From the NCBI GenBank assembly GCA_900766735.1, contig CAAFWO010000017.1, positions 792 through 64,791 on the forward strand: 64,000 bases of DNA, in the 5' to 3' direction. The DNA comes from Clostridia bacterium (lineage in GTDB: Bacteria > Bacillota > Clostridia > CAKSNL01 > HGM11501). Both the position numbers and the translations under genes were made by a program. Each line of letters begins with the position of its first letter. The first letter of the stretch is position 1. The notes beneath the pieces were generated by a model, which had not been told where the DNA came from, made no database searches, and was given only the letters and a program-made list of their open reading frames with translations. Positions 31,870 through 56,935 of this stretch are shown here, one piece after another.

Positions 31870-31874
31870 AATTT

Positions 31875-31903
31875 AAAAGCAAGCCGAAAGGTTTGCTTTT
31901 TTG
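31875..31903 (+). terminator. Rho-independent terminator after the TrxR-like gene
   Basis: aagcaagcc gaaa ggtttgctt followed by TTTTTT. Confidence 0.5.
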
Positions 31904-32062
31904 TATGTGCGTAAAGGCTCCCTCATCAGATGGAGGCATTTGACCACCCCACCCACGCTAATGCACCCATCTCTTTGTAACAATTCACTCACCCGTCCGC
32001 GGAACACTTTGCCGCTCTAATGTTACAAAACGGTGACAAATGAAGAAAAATCGCAAAAAAGC

Positions 32063-32329: not shown

Positions 32330-35245
32330 ATGAAAAATCTCAAGAAAGTTCTCGCACTTGTATTGGCATGCGCTACTCTCTTCACGATGAGCTCTTTCGC
32401 ATTTTCGGACGTTGCTGAAGATGCAAGCTATCTTGAAGCTGTAACGATGCTCAGCAAGCTGGGAATCATCAACGGTTATGAGGATGGAACCTTCCTTCCT
32501 GATAACACAATCACCAGAGCGGAAGCTGCGAAAGTTCTTGTATGCGCTCTTAACGCTGAAGATTCAGCTAAGGGTATGGCAGATCAGGAGCTCTTCACAG
32601 ACGTTCCGAAGACTCACTGGGCTGCAGGTTATGTAAACTACGCTGCAAACTTCGGTATCATCGCAGGTCGTGGAAACGGCATATTTGATCCCGAGTCTCC
32701 CGTTTCTTACGAGGAAATCGTAAAGATGGTAGTTGCAATGCTTGGTTACACACCTGTTGCAAACATCAAGGGCGGCTATCCCACAGGTTATCTCTATGTT
32801 GCAAACAGCGTAGCTAAGATCACCAAGGGTGCAACCGGCACGACCGGCGACGCTGCTAAGAGATGGGTTGTTGCAAGACTTGTATTCAACTCTCTTGAAA
32901 CAAAGATCATGGAGCCCGAAAAGTGGAGTGCAAGCGATCCCGAGTACATCAAGGGTGATGACACTCTCTTAAAGGATTATCTTGAAGTTACCAAGGTTGA
33001 GGGTGTTATCACCGATACATTCCTCGCTAAGGCTGATTTCCAGGATAAAGAAGATCAGGACGTTGACTTGCTTATCAGCACAATCGACGGCAAGACAAAG
33101 AGAGCACTCGAGAATGACAACATTTCTTACAACTCTATGCCCGGCGACACCTACACTGTAGACGCTAACGGCACATACGCTGAGGATTACCTCGGTTACA
33201 CAGTTGTAGCATACGTTAAGGATTTCGACGAGGGTTCCGACGTGCTCGTTGCTGTAGCTCCCAAGGCTAACAAGAACACGACTCTTGACGTTGCTTTTGA
33301 CGACTTCGAGAAAGACACTGTTGACAACTCAAACTCTAAGTACATCGAGTTCGAGTACTATGCAAATGTTGACGACGAAGACACAACAAAGGGCAAGATC
33401 TCCAAGAAGAATGACGACTTCTATGTATATCAGAACGGCAGATTGGACTCTTCTCTTAACTCTGACACGGCAATTGTTAACTTCATCAAGCAGTTCAGCA
33501 CCGATTACGATGCAGAAGAGGGTTACATCAGATTCGTTGATAACGACGGCGATAACTATGCTGATTACCTCTTCGTTGAGACCATCAACGATGAGTATGT
33601 AGTTGATTCTATCACAGCTAAGACATTCAAGATTGACGACAAGATCAACTCTAAGACGATCACTCTCGATCCTACCGACGATGAGAAGTATGTAAACTTC
33701 TACAGAGACGGCGTACAGGTTGAGTTCTCTTCCATCAAGGAAGGCGACACTCTTTCTGTAGCATACAATAAGTCTACTCTTAAGAACTCCAACGTTGTAA
33801 GCGTTTACATCTCTTCGGAGAAGGCTGAGGGCTATGTTTCCACAGCTTCCGCTACAAAGAACGAGTACAAGATCGACGGTACCGTATATGCTAAGTCTTC
33901 TAAGTACACTGAAGACATTAGGAGAGGCGACGAGGGCACATTCTACCTTAACTATAAGGGCAGAGTAGCATACAAAGAGGCTCAGACTTCTAAGGACGGC
34001 AACTATGCATTCTTACTTTCTGTAAACACTGATGACGACTTTGCTGACGGCAAGAGCTTCACTCTTCGTTTCATGAACGAAAAGGGTGAGTGGGTAGACG
34101 CTAAGCTTTATGAGAAGCTTGCTATCTACGACGAAGGCGGTAAGCAGGTTGCTAAGTACAAGGACATGGATGCTCTTGAGGCCGGAATCGAAGCTAATAC
34201 GAGCAACTGGTTAGCGGTAAATGCAGGCGAGCTTGAGCTTGACGGCGCTAAGGCTCAGAGAATATTCAAGTATACTCTTAACTCCAACGGCGACATCACA
34301 AAGATCACTCTTCCCAAGAATGGCCTTAATGAGGACAAATTCACCTATGAAGCATTTACTGATGAGACCTACAAAGAGTCTTCCAACAGATTTGCCGGCA
34401 TCAAATATAAGGGCGGCGTTGACAAGAAAACTGTAGTATTCAATATCGACGTTGACACTGACAACGTAGTAGACGCAACAAAGAAGAAAGAGGTTTCTCT
34501 TGCGACAAGCACTCTCTTCAAGGATGAGTCTAAGTACACAGGTATTGCATACGATTACGAGAACGACGCTTACAAGTGCATGGTAATCACCAATGCCGGA
34601 AACAAGATCGACGAAGAGTCTTCTCTCCTCGTAATCCAGAACGCAGAGCTCACATCCAACGATGATGACGATTACTTCGTAATCACCGGTTACAAGGATG
34701 GTAAGAATGTTACTCTTGAGTCTGTAGCAATTGAAGACCTCGGGTATGAGGGCACTAAGGTTACAACCGACAGCGAGCTTGAAAATCTTGACGGCGGCGC
34801 AATCGCAGAGATCTCTGTTGACGGCGCAGGCAAGATCGACAATGTAAAGGTTCTCTTCACATTTGACGATGCTGAGTACGGCAAGAAGGTTGAGATCGGC
34901 AACCTTGACGAGGATGCAGCTTATGTATACGGTGCAATCTCTTCCAAGAAGGTTTCCGGAACAGGCAAGGTTATCGACCTTACATCTTCATATGTATTAG
35001 ATGCTGATGGCAAGGATCAGAATGTATTTGCAAGCATCGCAACAGCGGGTGCCGGCATGAAGGGTAACATCTACCTTGTAGAGCCCGGTGCAAGAAAGAA
35101 CACCATCTCGGTTGATACTTCTATCGCTGATTATGTTGATTCTCTCAACGAAGATCTCGGATCCGGTGACGAAGTTTACTGCGCATATGCTAAGCTTTAT
35201 GACGGCGACACGATCGACGTTGTAGTTTACAAGATCAAGCTGTAA
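32330..35245 (+). CDS. S-layer protein with three N-terminal SLH domains (971 aa)
   Basis: Signal peptide followed by SLH repeats and a large acidic Asp/Thr-rich beta-type domain. Twin strong promoters, strong terminator and biased codon usage suggest very high expression. Confidence 0.85.
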   Translation: MKNLKKVLALVLACATLFTMSSFAFSDVAEDASYLEAVTMLSKLGIINGYEDGTFLPDNTITRAEAAKVLVCALNAEDSAKGMADQELFTDVPKTHWAAGYVNYAANFGIIAGRGNGIFDPESPVSYEEIVKMVVAMLGYTPVANIKGGYPTGYLYVANSVAKITKGATGTTGDAAKRWVVARLVFNSLETKIMEPEKWSASDPEYIKGDDTLLKDYLEVTKVEGVITDTFLAKADFQDKEDQDVDLLISTIDGKTKRALENDNISYNSMPGDTYTVDANGTYAEDYLGYTVVAYVKDFDEGSDVLVAVAPKANKNTTLDVAFDDFEKDTVDNSNSKYIEFEYYANVDDEDTTKGKISKKNDDFYVYQNGRLDSSLNSDTAIVNFIKQFSTDYDAEEGYIRFVDNDGDNYADYLFVETINDEYVVDSITAKTFKIDDKINSKTITLDPTDDEKYVNFYRDGVQVEFSSIKEGDTLSVAYNKSTLKNSNVVSVYISSEKAEGYVSTASATKNEYKIDGTVYAKSSKYTEDIRRGDEGTFYLNYKGRVAYKEAQTSKDGNYAFLLSVNTDDDFADGKSFTLRFMNEKGEWVDAKLYEKLAIYDEGGKQVAKYKDMDALEAGIEANTSNWLAVNAGELELDGAKAQRIFKYTLNSNGDITKITLPKNGLNEDKFTYEAFTDETYKESSNRFAGIKYKGGVDKKTVVFNIDVDTDNVVDATKKKEVSLATSTLFKDESKYTGIAYDYENDAYKCMVITNAGNKIDEESSLLVIQNAELTSNDDDDYFVITGYKDGKNVTLESVAIEDLGYEGTKVTTDSELENLDGGAIAEISVDGAGKIDNVKVLFTFDDAEYGKKVEIGNLDEDAAYVYGAISSKKVSGTGKVIDLTSSYVLDADGKDQNVFASIATAGAGMKGNIYLVEPGARKNTISVDTSIADYVDSLNEDLGSGDEVYCAYAKLYDGDTIDVVVYKIKL

Positions 35246-35266
35246 GCTTTAACCCAAACAATTAAA

Positions 35267-35297
35267 AAGAACGCAGAGCAATCTGCGTTCTTTTTTT
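35267..35297 (+). terminator. Strong rho-independent terminator of S-layer gene
   Basis: gaacgcaga gcaa tctgcgttc followed by TTTTTTT. Confidence 0.85.
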
Positions 35298-35299
35298 GT

Positions 35300-35580
35300 G
35301 TGCGCTTTCAAAGGCTCACCCGGAGTTTGGTTAAGGCGCAATAAGGCTCCCCCTGGGGGAGCTGTCAAAACCGCAGGGTTTGACTGAGGGATATGGGATT
35401 TGCACCCACTCCGATAGTACACCGTAGGGCACGGCGGTTTCCGACGTGCCGACCGTTTTGCACACACCTCGGTTCGTCGTAAACGCCGAACCCTACGATT
35501 TGCACCCACTCCACTGATGCACCCGTAGGGGATGGCGTCCCCGACATCCCGATAATTTTAAGAACAAAAAAGGGGAACAA
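35300..35580. repeat. Cluster of modular intergenic palindromic repeat elements (family shared with 31905-31960 and 40320-41100)
   Basis: gatttgcacccactcc occurs twice. A 29-nt core gtagggcacggcggtttccgacgtgccga is identical to 40923-40951. A ~45-bp unit gagtttggttaaggcgcaataaggctccccctgggggagctg is homologous to 40631-40677 and 40789-40832. Confidence 0.65.
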
Positions 35581-35607: not shown

Positions 35608-35642
35608 AAAAAGTCGGAACAAGCTTCGCTTGTTCCGACTCG
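35608..35642 (-). terminator. Terminator of tRNA-Thr (minus strand)
   Basis: gtcggaacaagc ttcg cttgttccgac with a T-run on the minus strand. Confidence 0.65.
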
Positions 35643-35718
<76 letters not shown>

Positions 35719-35733
35719 AAACCAACATATAAT

Positions 35734-35762
35734 ATTATACTTTATATTGCCCGATTTGTCAA
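35734..35762 (-). promoter_or_regulatory. tRNA-Thr promoter (TTGACA-17-TATAAT on minus strand)
   Basis: Reverse complement cTTGACAaatcgggcaatataaagTATAAT. Confidence 0.65.
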
Positions 35763-40319: not shown

Positions 40320-41100
40320 ACAACGCACTATGCATAGTGTCGTAACACGGATAGGCAGTGTAATGACATGGTACACAGTTTTGCATTAAAATGCGTGCAA
40401 AATAACCGTGTGCTGGTCTCCAAAGTATCACGGGTTTCGCACATTCACTCCACTCATGCACCTGTAGGACGCTCACGGTTCCCGACGTGCCGAGTGTGCT
40501 TTTCGGGTTGAATGCACCGTAGGGTCGATTCTCAGAATCGACCGGTTAATAATTTGTTCACCTTTGGCATATCCTCCCTCCGCCTTCGGCTCCACCCTCC
40601 TTTACACAAGGAGGGCTTTAAACTTCCGCAAAGGTTTGGAGAGAACATTTAAAGGCTCCCTTGCCCAAAGGGAGCTGGGTTTTGCATAGCAAAACTCTGA
40701 GGGGTAGTTATAAGGCCGTCTCTCCCTCCGTCAAAACCTGACGGTGTTGCCACCTCACTCATCAGATGGAGGCATTTAAGCATCCGCCGAGGTTTGGATA
40801 GTGCATTTAAAGGCTTCCTCTAAGGAGGCTCCGCCGGTAGGCGGTGGTGAGGGGGCGATGTGGGCAACGGGTCGTCGAGGACGCCAACCTCTACGGGTTA
40901 GCGGTCACATATTTGGTGCATTGTAGGGCACGGCGGTTTCCGACGTGCCGAATGCGAACTTAAAATTCTCTCCCTCCGTCTCGGCTGCGCCGAGCCAGCT
41001 CCCTCGTCAGAGGGAGCCCTTTGCGCTTGCTTTTTCAGTGCACCGCAGGGGATGGCGTTCCCGAAATTCCGAAACCTATAAAAACTCGTATTTTTTGACA
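40320..41100. repeat. ~800-bp gene-free region densely packed with modular hairpin repeats (same family as 31905-31960 and 35300-35580)
   Basis: No credible ORF. At least four repeat modules recur. These are TGCACC-GTAGGG + hairpin (x4), the ggtttggaKag...aaaggctYcc-loop-ggagc unit (x2), TCTCCCTCCG + hairpin (x3) and ctcatcagatggaggcattt (x1). Confidence 0.65.
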
Positions 41101-51142: not shown

Positions 51143-52393
51143 ATGCTTAAAAAAATCACAGCGGTTATTGCCTGCCTTGCGATCGCGGCGTCGGTTGTCG
51201 GATGCGGCAAAAAAGCGGTAACATTTGACACTGAAGACTGGGGCGACATGGAGATCCGTGTTGCCGGCTACAGACTTTTCAACGACGACCCGTTAAACTA
51301 TGAGTTTGCGGCAGGCGCCGACAAGTTTACCGAAGAGTACGGCACGAAGGTTTCATTTATGGTCGGCGGCGGCGACGGACTGGGCGACGATCTCGTTTCG
51401 GGCATCATGTCCGGCGACCCGTGGGAGGTTCAGTATTGTTTCGGAATCTCGGTATTCCCGCTCACCTTTGCCGAGGAGCTCTACACACCCATCACGGATT
51501 ATCTTGATTTCGAGAACAACGACAAGATTGACAAGCTCACTGTCGAGGGCACAAAGTGGCTCGGAGAGTACTACGGTGTCAGCGCCCTTCCCATGCAGGA
51601 AGTTTTGTATATAGCATATAACGAGACATGGATGAATGAGCTCGGCATCAAGACCCCCTATGAGTATTACAAAGAGGGCAAGTGGGACATGGAGGCTTAT
51701 AAGGAGATCAACAAAGCCGGCGTTGCACTCGGCGCAAACTCAAAGAGCATGTACACAAGACCGCACGTTCCCGGAAAATATATGTCCGAATGGAACGACG
51801 AGACAGGCGAGGTCACCGTTACATATGACTGCCCCGAAAACGTTGAGTGGCTCAGCTACTGGGGTGAGCTTTTGAGCAATCCTCAGTACAACATCACGAC
51901 GGTCGGCAAGGTTTCTTTAAGAAACATCATCATGCGCGATCAGGTTATGCCCAACCTTATCAAAGACGAGCTTAACGAAACGACGACAGATACGATAAGA
52001 TACATAAACTACCCCAATAAGGACGGCGGACCCGGCGCATATCTCACGGACTCGCACTTCCTCTTCCCCCAGGGCGTTTCGGAGGAAAAGCTTCCCTGCG
52101 CATTCATGCTCGCCTGCTACATGGTCGACTCCAAGTCTGAGATGGTAACCGAGGAGACCTATAAGCCCAACATGAACGAAGAGGACTTCGCGATTTGGGA
52201 GGAGACGCTTGACAACGCATATTATCTTCCGAGAATTTTCTATAACGGAATCTGGGAGATGTGCGACAAGTTCTTAAGCGATATGAACGCCGGAAAAGCG
52301 GTTGCGACTCACATCGCGGAAAACACAGAGGTTCTTAAGGCAAGAGCCGAAGAGTTCAACGAAAAATACGTTGACGGCTATGAAGCAAAATAA
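51143..52393 (+). CDS. Extracellular solute-binding lipoprotein (ABC transporter family-1 SBP), paralog 1
   Basis: Lipoprotein signal peptide (lipobox VVGC). SBP_bac_1-like GVSALPMQEVLYIAYN core. Confidence 0.78.
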   Translation: MLKKITAVIACLAIAASVVGCGKKAVTFDTEDWGDMEIRVAGYRLFNDDPLNYEFAAGADKFTEEYGTKVSFMVGGGDGLGDDLVSGIMSGDPWEVQYCFGISVFPLTFAEELYTPITDYLDFENNDKIDKLTVEGTKWLGEYYGVSALPMQEVLYIAYNETWMNELGIKTPYEYYKEGKWDMEAYKEINKAGVALGANSKSMYTRPHVPGKYMSEWNDETGEVTVTYDCPENVEWLSYWGELLSNPQYNITTVGKVSLRNIIMRDQVMPNLIKDELNETTTDTIRYINYPNKDGGPGAYLTDSHFLFPQGVSEEKLPCAFMLACYMVDSKSEMVTEETYKPNMNEEDFAIWEETLDNAYYLPRIFYNGIWEMCDKFLSDMNAGKAVATHIAENTEVLKARAEEFNEKYVDGYEAK

Positions 52394-52409
52394 TTAAAAA
52401 CATACTTAA

Positions 52410-52445
52410 AAAACAGGGCGGCTTTTCCGCCCTGTTTTTTGCGCC
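52410..52445 (+). terminator. Rho-independent terminator
   Basis: aaacagggcgg cttttc cgccctgttt followed by TTTT. Confidence 0.8.
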
Positions 52446-52685
52446 GGCGAGCACCGGCTGACGGGCAGAAAAAAGCAGCCGGACAACAAGAAATAAAACC
52501 TTTTTTGGGTAATTATGCTGATTTTCATAACCAAATGTGTGAAAAAGTGAAATATATGTGCACTTTTTTAAAGAAAAGTCTTGACCCGGAGCGGATTTTG
52601 GTATATAATACTCTTACATTGGTGTCCCGGCGGCATTCCGGGGCATAGCACCCGTGAGGGAATTAAAAGTATGGAGGAGTATAGA

Positions 52686-53934
52686 AATGGCAAAAAAAAT
52701 CATTGCGGTTGTTGCTTGCTTGGCTATCATTGCGTCTTTTGTAGGATGCGGCAAGAAAGTAACATTCAACACAGAAGACTGGGCTGACATGGAAATCCGT
52801 GTTGCAGGCTACAGACTTTTCAACGACGACCCGTTAAACTATGAGTTTGCGGCAGGAGCAGATAAGTTTACCGAGGAGTACGGAACAAAGGTTTCCTTCC
52901 TGGTAGGCGGCGGCGACGGACTTGGCGAAGACCTTGTTTCCGGTATCATGTCGGGCGATCCCTGGGAGATCCAGTATTGCTTCGGTATCTCGGTATTCCC
53001 GCTGACATTCGCTGAAGACCTTTACACACCCATTAACGACTACATAGACTATGACAACAACGACAAGATCGACAAAGTTACTGTTGAGGGCACGAAGTGG
53101 CTCGGCAACTACTACGGCGTAAGCGCTCTTCCCATGCAGGAAGTTTGGTATCTTGCATATAACGAGACCTGGATGAAGGAGCTCGGTATCAAGACCCCCT
53201 ATGAGTACTACAAAGAGGGCAAGTGGGATATGGACGCTTATAAGGAGATCAATAAGCAGGCGACAGCACTCGGTGCGGGCACCAGATCCTCAATGACAAG
53301 GCCTCAGACCACAGGAAAATATATGTCCACATGGAACGACGAGACAGGCGAAGTTACCGTTACATATGACAGCCCCGAGAACACAGAGTGGCTCGGCTAC
53401 TGGGGTGAGCTTCTGACCAATCCTCAGTACAACATCAGAAGCGGCGGCAAGGTTTCTTTGAGAAACTCCATCATGCGTGACGGAGTTATGCCCAACCTTA
53501 TCAAGGATGAGCTCAACGAAGAGACGACCGATACAATCAGATACATCAACTATCCCAATAAGGACGGTTCGGTAAGCTCGTATCTTACAGACTCGCACTT
53601 CCTCTTCCCCCAGGGCGTTTCGGAAGATAAGCTTCCCTGCGCATTCATGCTCGCTTGCTACATGGTTGACTCTAAGTCCACCATGGTAACGGAGGAGACC
53701 TATAAGCCCAACATGAGCGAGGAAGACTTCGCACTTTGGGAGGAGACGCTCGATAACGCATACTATCTTCCCAGAATATTCTATAAGGGTATCTTCGACA
53801 TTGGTAACAAGTTCTTAAAAGATATGGATGAGGGCAAGGCTGTTGCAACTCACATCGCTGAGAACACAGAGAGCCTTAAGGCTAAGGCTGAAGAGTTCAA
53901 CACAAAGTATGTTGATGGCTACGAAGCTAAATAA
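52686..53934 (+). CDS. Extracellular solute-binding lipoprotein, paralog 2 (~85% identical to 51143-52393)
   Basis: Own promoter TTGACC-17-TATAAT (~52578-52606) and GGAGGAG RBS. Lipobox FVGC. Confidence 0.78.
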
Positions 53935-56766: not shown

Positions 56767-56774
56767 ATTAAAAA

Positions 56775-56935
56775 AAGAGTAGGGCGAGGTGAAATTCCTC
56801 ACCGGCGGTAATGAGCGTTTATGCTACGAGTCCGAGAGCGAAAGCTGATTTGGGTCAGATTCCCGAACCGACGGTAAAGTCCGGATGAAGAACTCACTTT
56901 TATGAGAGGCGCCTTTTTAAGGGCGCTTTTTTTGT
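56775..56935 (+). ncRNA. FMN riboswitch (RFN element) with terminator expression platform
   Basis: Conserved RFN segments GGGCGAGGTGAAATTCCTCACCGGCGGTAA, AGTCCGAGAGCGAAAG and CCGACGGTAAAGTCCGGATGAAGA. Followed by the hairpin aggcgcc/gggcgct and T7. Confidence 0.85.

Follow-up and report, generated by a model that had tools for sequence, protein, structure and literature searches.

A probable BIME-like mosaic of GTAG-tagged REPs and double-hairpin repeats between an S-layer gene and a convergent tRNA-Thr gene in an uncultured gut Clostridia bacterium

Small non-autonomous repeats and MITEs of bacteria include Correia, ERIC and the BOX/RUP repeats of streptococci, and REP-RAYT and REPIN systems were reportedly described by Nunvar in 2010 and by Bertels and Rainey in 2011. 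The described systems closest to the locus reported here are the GTAG-tagged REPs, in which a short, GC-rich hairpin carries GTAG at its foot and undergoes complementary changes in its stem, with copies that are extragenic, follow ORFs and form clusters (Di Nocera 2013, PMC3733652), and the TnpAREP proteins of subclass 2.4, for which REPs have been described in frame within the tnpAREP genes, between HuH and Tyr (Quentin 2018, PMC6006769). Here we analyze a 280-nt gap between the terminator of an SLH-domain S-layer gene and that of a convergent tRNA-Thr gene, and find that it carries three GTAG-tagged REPs and one double-hairpin unit, which we call B (Table 1). We think it likely that this gap is a BIME-like mosaic of two non-coding, hairpin-forming families of dispersed repeats, the REPs among them mobilized by a RAYT, that has accumulated neutrally in a silent gap; both families are typical of uncultured gut Clostridia.

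The window (the whole stretch of DNA analyzed, 64,000 nt) comes from an uncultured human-gut Clostridia bacterium, and identical GH4 proteins are found on human-gut metagenome contigs, including Hadza samples. The closest species-representative genome, hereafter the sister species, is a Hadza MAG named "uncultured Clostridia bacterium" (CAKSNL01) that is syntenic with the window at 83-92% nucleotide identity. Elsewhere in the window, we observed a tandem duplication of a lipoprotein-like gene of ~1.5 kb at 51149-53875, with copies that are 84% identical and 1541 nt apart.

Table 1. Repeat modules of the gap, their flanking transcription signals and the related repeat loci of the window (positions are those of the 64-kb window).
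Feature	Position	Strand	Sequence or structure	Remark
SLH-domain S-layer gene	32330-35245	+		left neighbor of repeat cluster
S-layer gene intrinsic terminator	35264-35297	+	GAACGCAGA-gcaa-TCTGCGTTC then TTTTTTT	left cluster boundary; terminator scan
B unit with leader	35306-35390	+		leader 35306-35342; B proper 35343-35390
B hairpin 1 with AAG	35343-35362	+	AAG + GCTCCCC-ctg-GGGGAGC	
B hairpin 2, variable	35364-35384	+	GTCAAAACC-gca-GGGTTTGAC	
B tag	35384-35390	+	CTGAGGG	conserved end of unit
REP leader copy 1	35397-35412	+	GATTTGCACCCACTCC	exact 16-mer repeat
REP 1	35418-35452	+	TACACC-GTAG-GGCACG-gcggtttccga-CGTGCC-GA	hairpin 35428-35450
REP 2, inverted	35467-35502	-	GTAG-GGTTCG-gcgtttacga-CGAACC	core 35471-35496
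REP leader copy 2	35497-35512	+	GATTTGCACCCACTCC	exact 16-mer repeat
REP 3	35518-35552	+	TGCACCC-GTAG-GGGATG-gcgtccccga-CATCCC-GA	hairpin 35529-35550
tRNA-Thr intrinsic terminator	35611-35641	-		right cluster boundary; terminator scan
tRNA-Thr(GGT) gene	35643-35718	-		right neighbor, convergent to S-layer gene
tRNA-Thr promoter	35734-35762	-	perfect TTGACA-17-TATAAT	
Sister cluster	40457-41074	+ (cluster); REP at 40865-40900 on -		REPs, C-B units, C unit
Degenerate remnant	31910-31975	+	GCTCCCTC...GGAGGC hairpin + leader CACCCACGCTAATGCACCC	3' of Pyr_redox gene terminator

A first-pass annotation of the sequence had described two copies of a palindromic module in the gap, each a leader followed by TGCACC(C)GTAGGG and a hairpin, with stems ggcacg...cgtgcc and gggatg...catccc and related loops. 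Both direct copies are real: the 16-mer leader occurs exactly twice in 64 kb, at 35397 and 35497 (against 0.28 matches in shuffles, even with 3 mismatches allowed), and 5-6 nt after each copy comes T(A/G)CACC(C)GTAGGG and then a perfect 6-bp hairpin with the stem described. The loops of REP 1 and REP 3 are indeed related (gcggtttccga and gcgtccccga), the consensus loop in other genomes being GCGTCCCCGA. What the first reading missed is a third copy, the inverted REP 2, which lies tail-to-tail with REP 1 and has its GTAG end facing that of REP 3, such that the REPs of the gap run +, -, + with a repeated leader. Covariance-model scores are 42.3 bits for REP 1 (itself in the training set), 42.2 bits for REP 2 and 49 bits for REP 3. 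There is a near-identical copy of REP 1 at 40917-40951, and the stem and loop of REP 3 are also found in the sister species (L013, L014, L017, L021). A strict search, requiring G[TC]AGG and, next to it, a perfectly paired stem of 6 bp or longer, returned 5 sites in the 64-kb window, 3 of them inside the gap, as compared with 0.71 ± 0.85 sites in dinucleotide shuffles.

These REPs share with the GTAG-tagged REPs of E. coli and Pseudomonas an unpaired GTAG directly at the foot of a GC-rich stem (6-9 bp), subfamilies set apart by compensatory stem changes, an extragenic position after ORFs, where the flanking genes converge or run in the same direction, clustering in which neighbors meet head-tail, head-head or tail-tail, and the occasional use of GTAG as a stop codon (PMC3733652), the last seen in the related contig L011, where the TAG is the stop codon of the upstream ORF (a 1150-aa gene). 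They differ in their host, a gut Clostridia lineage, whereas Firmicutes are absent from the text of PMC3733652, and in having an unusually long (10-11 nt) and conserved loop (GCGTCCCCGA) over a variable stem, a conserved 5' extension TGCACC with a ~20-nt leader (GCACCCACTNCG...), and tandem head-to-tail arrays, which are common here and rare in that survey. They also differ from REPINs: neighboring inverted REPs in the gap have different stems (GGTTCG in REP 2 versus GGCACG in REP 1 or GGGATG in REP 3), and therefore no long REPIN hairpin can form.

Across genomes, the REP consensus opens with TGCACC-GTAG; a GC-rich stem of 6 bp then encloses the loop GCG(G)TYYCCGA, and GA follows the return strand of the stem. 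Scanning 185,579 species genomes with the pattern TGCACCGYAGGGNNNNGCGN{2,3}YCCGA returned 20 loci, half of which (10/20) are true matches, all of them in gut or rumen Clostridia MAGs; we rejected the remaining loci (high-GC Actinomycetes etc.) as REPs, as they lack repeat context and are at chance level for a ~20-nt pattern. The ten Clostridia MAG loci have in common the tag TGCACCGTAGG and the loop GCGTCCCCGA, and the three central stem pairs vary with full compensation, the stems seen including GGACCG, GGTGCG, GGGCGG, GGGCTG, GGGTCG, GGGATG, GGCACG, GGTTCG and GGTTTG. In an alignment of 17 copies from 9 genomes, 98% of stem cells are paired and three pairs show compensatory changes, with 26 double-change cells observed versus 7.8 ± 2.2 in shuffles (0/500 reach the observed value); when the 3' partner was slid as a control, pairing fell to 30-51%. 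Directly 5' of the stem, the tag is GTAG in REP 1, 2 and 3, and among the aligned members it is GTAG in 14/17 and GCAG in 3/17. Sites with GTAG and a hairpin are many in related MAGs and metagenome contigs, and the metagenome contigs with B units also contain GTAG-REPs, of many stem types. Among IMG/VR viral contigs, the GTAG-REP pattern matched only one (L151).

Within the window, the covariance model, trained on a set that included the six best window matches and left out those at 40513 and 40457, finds 8 REP copies at 2 loci in 64 kb, both of them intergenic clusters; all REP copies of the window are intergenic, the gap cluster lying between convergent units. The second locus, the sister cluster, holds REPs at 40457 (degenerate), 40513, 40865-40900 (-), 40917 and 41039. 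A third locus, the degenerate remnant, retains the REP leader CACCCACGCTAATGCACCC with no hairpin after it. Thus the modules do occur beyond the copies first noted, the REP hairpin in the sister cluster and in gut and rumen Clostridia MAGs, and the ggctccc module in at least 120 metagenome contigs and 94 viral contigs. Our literature search found no description of these repeats in Clostridia.

The hairpins of REP and B are under structural selection, and the gap region folds better than shuffled sequence (z = -2.3 to -3.4). Both observations would suit a reading in which the modules are functional structured RNAs, that is, 3'-end stabilizers, back-up terminators or small RNAs made by read-through from the S-layer or tRNA-Thr gene, and REPs elsewhere have been reported to stabilize mRNA and to terminate transcription (PMC3733652, PMC6006769). 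Also in its favor, the sister species has a REP (GGGAGGATG-tcca-CATCCTCCC, then TTTTT; L013 3225-3260) directly after the Pyr_redox gene, where the terminator of that gene would be; the counterpart in the window (31870-31905) is an unrelated intrinsic terminator. This REP may serve as a terminator, and given its position at the expected terminator site, occasional exaptation is plausible.

We nevertheless regard the RNA reading as unlikely for the gap. As the first-pass annotation had it, the repeats sit where the S-layer mRNA and the convergent tRNA-Thr end, with the terminators at 35264-35297 and 35611-35641 flanking the cluster; the S-layer terminator hairpin is 100% conserved in all strains and is kept in the sister species. 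A terminator scan of the gap matched these two terminators only, with none at the REPs or B, a promoter scan found no promoter-like site inside the gap, and the hairpins of its REPs have no T-run on their 3' side. The same holds more broadly, in that each of the three repeat clusters of the window begins downstream of a strong intrinsic terminator, has copies on both strands and is without promoter-like or terminator-like sites, all of which makes a local RNA role unlikely. Searching Rfam tells against it as well, as the window matches that reach the gathering score are limited to tRNAs and an FMN riboswitch, and nothing relevant appears in the two repeat clusters up to E = 10. (The riboswitch, at 56771-56901 on the + strand, matches RF00050 with 77 bits.) The ORFs called across the gap are spurious translations of the repeats; we rejected as a gene the minus-strand ORF at 35365-35580, whose translation, likewise spurious, reads ...GMSGTPSPTGA...VGFGVYDEP....

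The second family of the mosaic had been glimpsed as one copy of a 45-bp unit, ggtttgg...ggctcccc. That unit is present, with two more window copies of its ggtttgg...ggctcccc-ctg-ggggagc form at 40633 and 40791 (ggctcccc-ctg-ggggagc near 40650 and 40808), but it is only part of a longer module that continues via the hairpin at 35364-35384 to CTGAGGG. Hairpin 1 of the full B unit is conserved (GCTCCC/GGGAGC plus two variable pairs), and hairpin 2 is variable: the 127 copies among the matches listed include 89 distinct sequences, the number of pairs averages 6.1, and folding yields -8.1 kcal/mol, compared with -2.0 kcal/mol for shuffles. In a hand-chosen subset of equal length, 96.9% of hairpin 2 cells are paired and 22 are double-change cells, versus 6.7 in shuffles (0/500). 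B has an inverse partner, module C, which reads CCCCTCCG, a variable hairpin and then CCACCTCCC-loop-GGGAGGC, and which departs from an exact inverse by fixed differences (a flipped foot pair, and CGGAGGG for CTGAGGG). Together they form a C-B unit of 130-150 nt that is palindromic overall, with inverted ends CCCCTCCG...CTGAGGGG; both modules have fixed linkers, and in the C-B or B-C pairs inspected the hairpin-1 loops of the partners are reverse complements. In the gap, B lacks the C half that normally stands before it. Elsewhere the window has, in tandem, two complete C-B units (about 40575-40705 and 40721-40858), along with a lone C unit (40972), and the B pattern itself matches at 35358, 40671 and 40824 versus 0.39 matches expected.

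Scanning metagenomes with the B pattern (AAGGCTCCC-N3-12-GGGAGCTG-N14-30-CTGAGGG) showed how widespread this family is, the contigs with matches coming from human gut, rumen and wild herbivores, and B/C is a very abundant repeat family of gut Clostridia. Some of the IMG/VR viral contigs (L155-L234) carry 2-3 B copies, which may lie in true phage DNA or in host flanks. By a rough ORF-based estimate, the 65 classifiable metagenome copies listed lie between convergent (27), same-direction (34) and divergent (4) gene pairs, and, again roughly and among the matches listed, 28 further copies lie inside putative ORFs of at least 150 aa. The orientation of B relative to neighboring genes, 20 versus 14 among the matches listed, shows no clear bias, which is a further point against an RNA role. 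The full B-C-A unit has no match among plasmids and three weak matches among phages, to unannotated fecal fragments.

The B/C family is without GTAG, and we know of no enzyme that mobilizes it; the element is also absent from Rfam and from the literature searched. It resembles small non-autonomous repeats and MITEs in that the C-B unit has inverted ends and a palindromic build and is abundant, intergenic and found in phage contigs, and it differs from them in having internal hairpins with freely varying stems, which ordinary MITE copies do not show. Among other assignments considered for these strings, module C as a CGTC-tagged REP was rejected, since its CGTC is inside the stem and the AT-first stems and CCA tail of that family do not fit. 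By eye, we also rejected hammerhead-like CUGANGA motifs (the CATCAG/GTCAG strings are hairpin loops or arms, with no GAAA or stem III following) and integron attC sites (no RYYYAAC/GTTRRRY ends).

Comparing the locus across strains, as the first reading had proposed, revealed two haplotypes that differ by replacement of modules. In one (L002, L003, L004, L007, L009, L010) the full B-C-REP series is present and the gap is ~70 nt longer, and in the other (the window, L001, L005, L006) the first GATTTGCACCCACTCC leader replaces the end of B and C, such that leader copy 1 is exclusive to this haplotype and the C module stands there in the other, which reads ...CACTTA... at the site of leader copy 2. 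The difference is a replacement between CTGAGGG and ACCGTAGGG and not a clean insertion, most simply explained by recombination between repeat copies; being a replacement that adjoins a recombining S-layer allele, it does not prove transposition. The S-layer protein of the window is 92% identical overall to that of L002 (6342-9266), with ~99% identity over the first 660 residues and with most of the divergence and indels falling in the C-terminal third, past about residue 660. Its upstream neighbor gene is 99% identical, and neighboring genes are about 99-100% identical, a pattern that suggests allelic replacement of a surface-exposed domain beside the repeat cluster. Separately, the strains differ 3' of an esterase gene, where L002 and L008 carry a mobilizable element at 16.3-21.4 kb (HTH regulator, MobC/NikA-like protein, relaxase, phage replication protein) and where L001, L005 and L006 have Dabb, Exo_endo_phos and agmatine-pathway genes, according to the contig gene tables.

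Modules also turn over between species. The orthologous gap of the sister species is ~800 nt long and contains at least 6 REPs in both orientations together with B and C units, a module content wholly different from that of the window, with both flanking terminators conserved, and the sister-species spacer orthologous to the degenerate remnant has four intact REPs and a C unit in its place. That module order and content differ between strains argues once more against a structured RNA, and it bears equally on a second alternative, namely that the cluster binds proteins or structures the chromosome in the manner of E. coli BIMEs, which are bound by gyrase, IHF or Pol I, and is kept for supercoil relief between very highly expressed convergent units. 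PMC2817692 gives the BIME precedent, high transcription is expected both of the S-layer gene and of the tRNA gene, whose promoter is perfect, and the orthologous gap of the sister species is also filled with repeats. We find this alternative quite improbable, however, as the module content is conserved neither between strains nor between species, the modules are found again in phage contigs and across many unrelated settings, and no protein partner is known. The likeness to BIMEs is one of architecture only, with no sequence similarity or homology. It comprises a mosaic of palindromic units of alternating orientation with conserved linker motifs, two complementary unit types in opposite orientation (B versus C, like Y versus Z) and a location at transcription-unit ends, whereas B and C are double hairpins without GTAG and have no known binding of IHF, gyrase or Pol I.

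The same REP is found inside transposase genes of related MAGs. In L011 and L015 it occurs as an inverted pair, ~190 nt apart and in frame within a 181-aa ORF, where the hairpins are translated as VGTGVPDGP and GPSGTPVPTVQ. This ORF has the HuH motif MPNHIHILL and matches NCBIfam NF047646, "REP-associated tyrosine transposase" (E 1e-14), at 54.5 bits, below the cut-off of 80, with no match in Pfam, in which respect it differs from described RAYTs; its best solved relative is the E. coli TnpAREP (PDB 4ER8, E 5e-7), against which the REP-coded peptide aligns as an insertion just after HuH. The arrangement matches REP-RAYT systems and TnpAREP subclass 2.4, respectively, in that a RAYT-like HUH-Y1 protein is tied to the same REP and in that the gene contains the REPs in frame, past its HuH motif (PMC6006769). 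This is a large protein family (2,525 clusters at 90% identity; 14,914 representatives at 50%, with E up to 1e-3), some members carry the JGI name "REP element-mobilizing transposase RayT", and in related MAGs the gene lies among housekeeping genes. Across RAYT lineages the embedded peptides co-vary in pairs (VGTGVPDGP/GPSGTPVPT, VGDGALDVP/GTSRAPSPT, VGDGALDIP/GMSRAPSPT, VGAGALDGP/GPSRAPAPT), and therefore each RAYT gene keeps a matched inverted REP pair; the VGDGALDIP/GMSRAPSPT pair corresponds to the GGGATG stem of REP 3. The flank TGCACC|GTAG is likewise shared by GTAG-REPs and RAYT genes, in which it encodes PTVQ.

Many RAYT homologs (among them P0003, P0004, P0005, P0012, P0016 and P0024) have tandem duplications of the REP-coded peptide within the ORF, e.g., VGTGVLDGPPSTGVLDGPPSTGVLDGP, so REPs multiply in frame within the transposase gene. 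Another array, at 4310-4460 of L011, begins with a full REP, whose right half (GGCGTCCCCGACGGTCCGTTTGTAAYC) is then repeated in tandem as about five copies of 31 nt; it lies 3' of the 1150-aa gene and directly adjoins the RAYT gene. In the same contig, the coding flank of RAYT past its second REP, GGTGCAAAATTCTATCCCCTCAAGG, looks like the reverse complement of the junction between B and leader in the window (35384-35407), GGTGCAAATCCCATATCCCTCAGTC, a hint that sequence next to RAYT could be the source of the leader and CTGAGGG tag.

Unlike in REP-RAYT systems, no cognate RAYT was found in the available sequence of the window species: tblastn recovered no RAYT gene in the 64-kb window or in contigs of same-species strains. 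Protein searches returned no RAYT with the exact window-type peptides (VGDGVPDIP/GMSGTPSPT or VGHGGFRRA), and an artificial RAYT query bearing REP peptides of the window type yielded no more than 6 candidates, of which none matched. The query P0255, a RAYT with the GGGATG stem, did find GGGATG-stem RAYTs, with the loop GCGCCCTCGA and not the GCGTCCCCGA of the window. Around two RAYT loci on long contigs (L152, L154), there are no dispersed REPs within ±10 kb, and therefore a RAYT with embedded REPs does not alone imply dispersal.

The paired REPs of these genes bring in a third alternative, in which the gap is a decayed RAYT gene or IS200-like transposon, a dead "REPtron", rather than repeats that were acquired independently. 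In related MAGs, RAYT genes do carry two inverted REPs ~190 nt apart, and the spurious minus-strand ORF of the gap does read RAYT-like REP peptides (...GMSGTPSPT...VGFGVYDEP...). Against this, tblastn with RAYT gave no similarity outside the REP-coded peptides, the peptide order is reversed relative to RAYTs, a HuH motif is lacking, and the same modules recur at 40457-41074, all of which leaves a decayed gene highly improbable.

We therefore return to the mosaic of dispersed repeats, and propose that the REPs are, most likely, non-autonomous elements processed in single-stranded form by an HUH-Y1 transposase of the RAYT/TnpAREP type, which would recognize the hairpin with GTAG at its foot and cut and rejoin there, its presumed single-strand substrate being TGCACCGTAGGG plus the hairpin. 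With a cognate RAYT not found in the searched sequence, and given the two long contigs just described, we infer the mobilization of these copies from the E. coli biochemistry in the cited papers. B, with its GCTCCC hairpin, variable hairpin, CTGAGGG tag and inverse partner C, is the second family in the mosaic. Copies of REP, B and C would accumulate between the two convergent terminators because insertions there cost nothing, and recombination between copies would then reshuffle the modules. Our best reading is thus that selfish palindromes built up neutrally in a transcriptionally silent gap, and the repeats probably lack a local function.

How the two families arose is a more tentative matter. 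A possible, if rather doubtful, history is that B/C is a separate mobile palindromic element with its own enzyme and that the GTAG-REPs descend from the REP pair in RAYT coding sequence, a descent we suggest because the RAYT flank TGCACC|GTAG is shared. If true, the repeats would be a route for a domesticated transposase gene to seed its own recognition sites chromosome-wide.

The cluster itself is an ordinary though little-described feature and not a new biological system. Its recognition explains a common source of spurious ORFs in such genomes, as the peptides GMSGTPSPT, VG.G..D.P and GELS...TEG are translated repeats. The repeats break assemblies and mark fast-evolving spacers, and as such could serve in strain typing, and they may seed recombination beside the variable S-layer gene. 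More broadly, they extend REP/BIME-type repeats and the link to RAYT to uncultured gut Clostridia, a group outside the REP surveys we examined.
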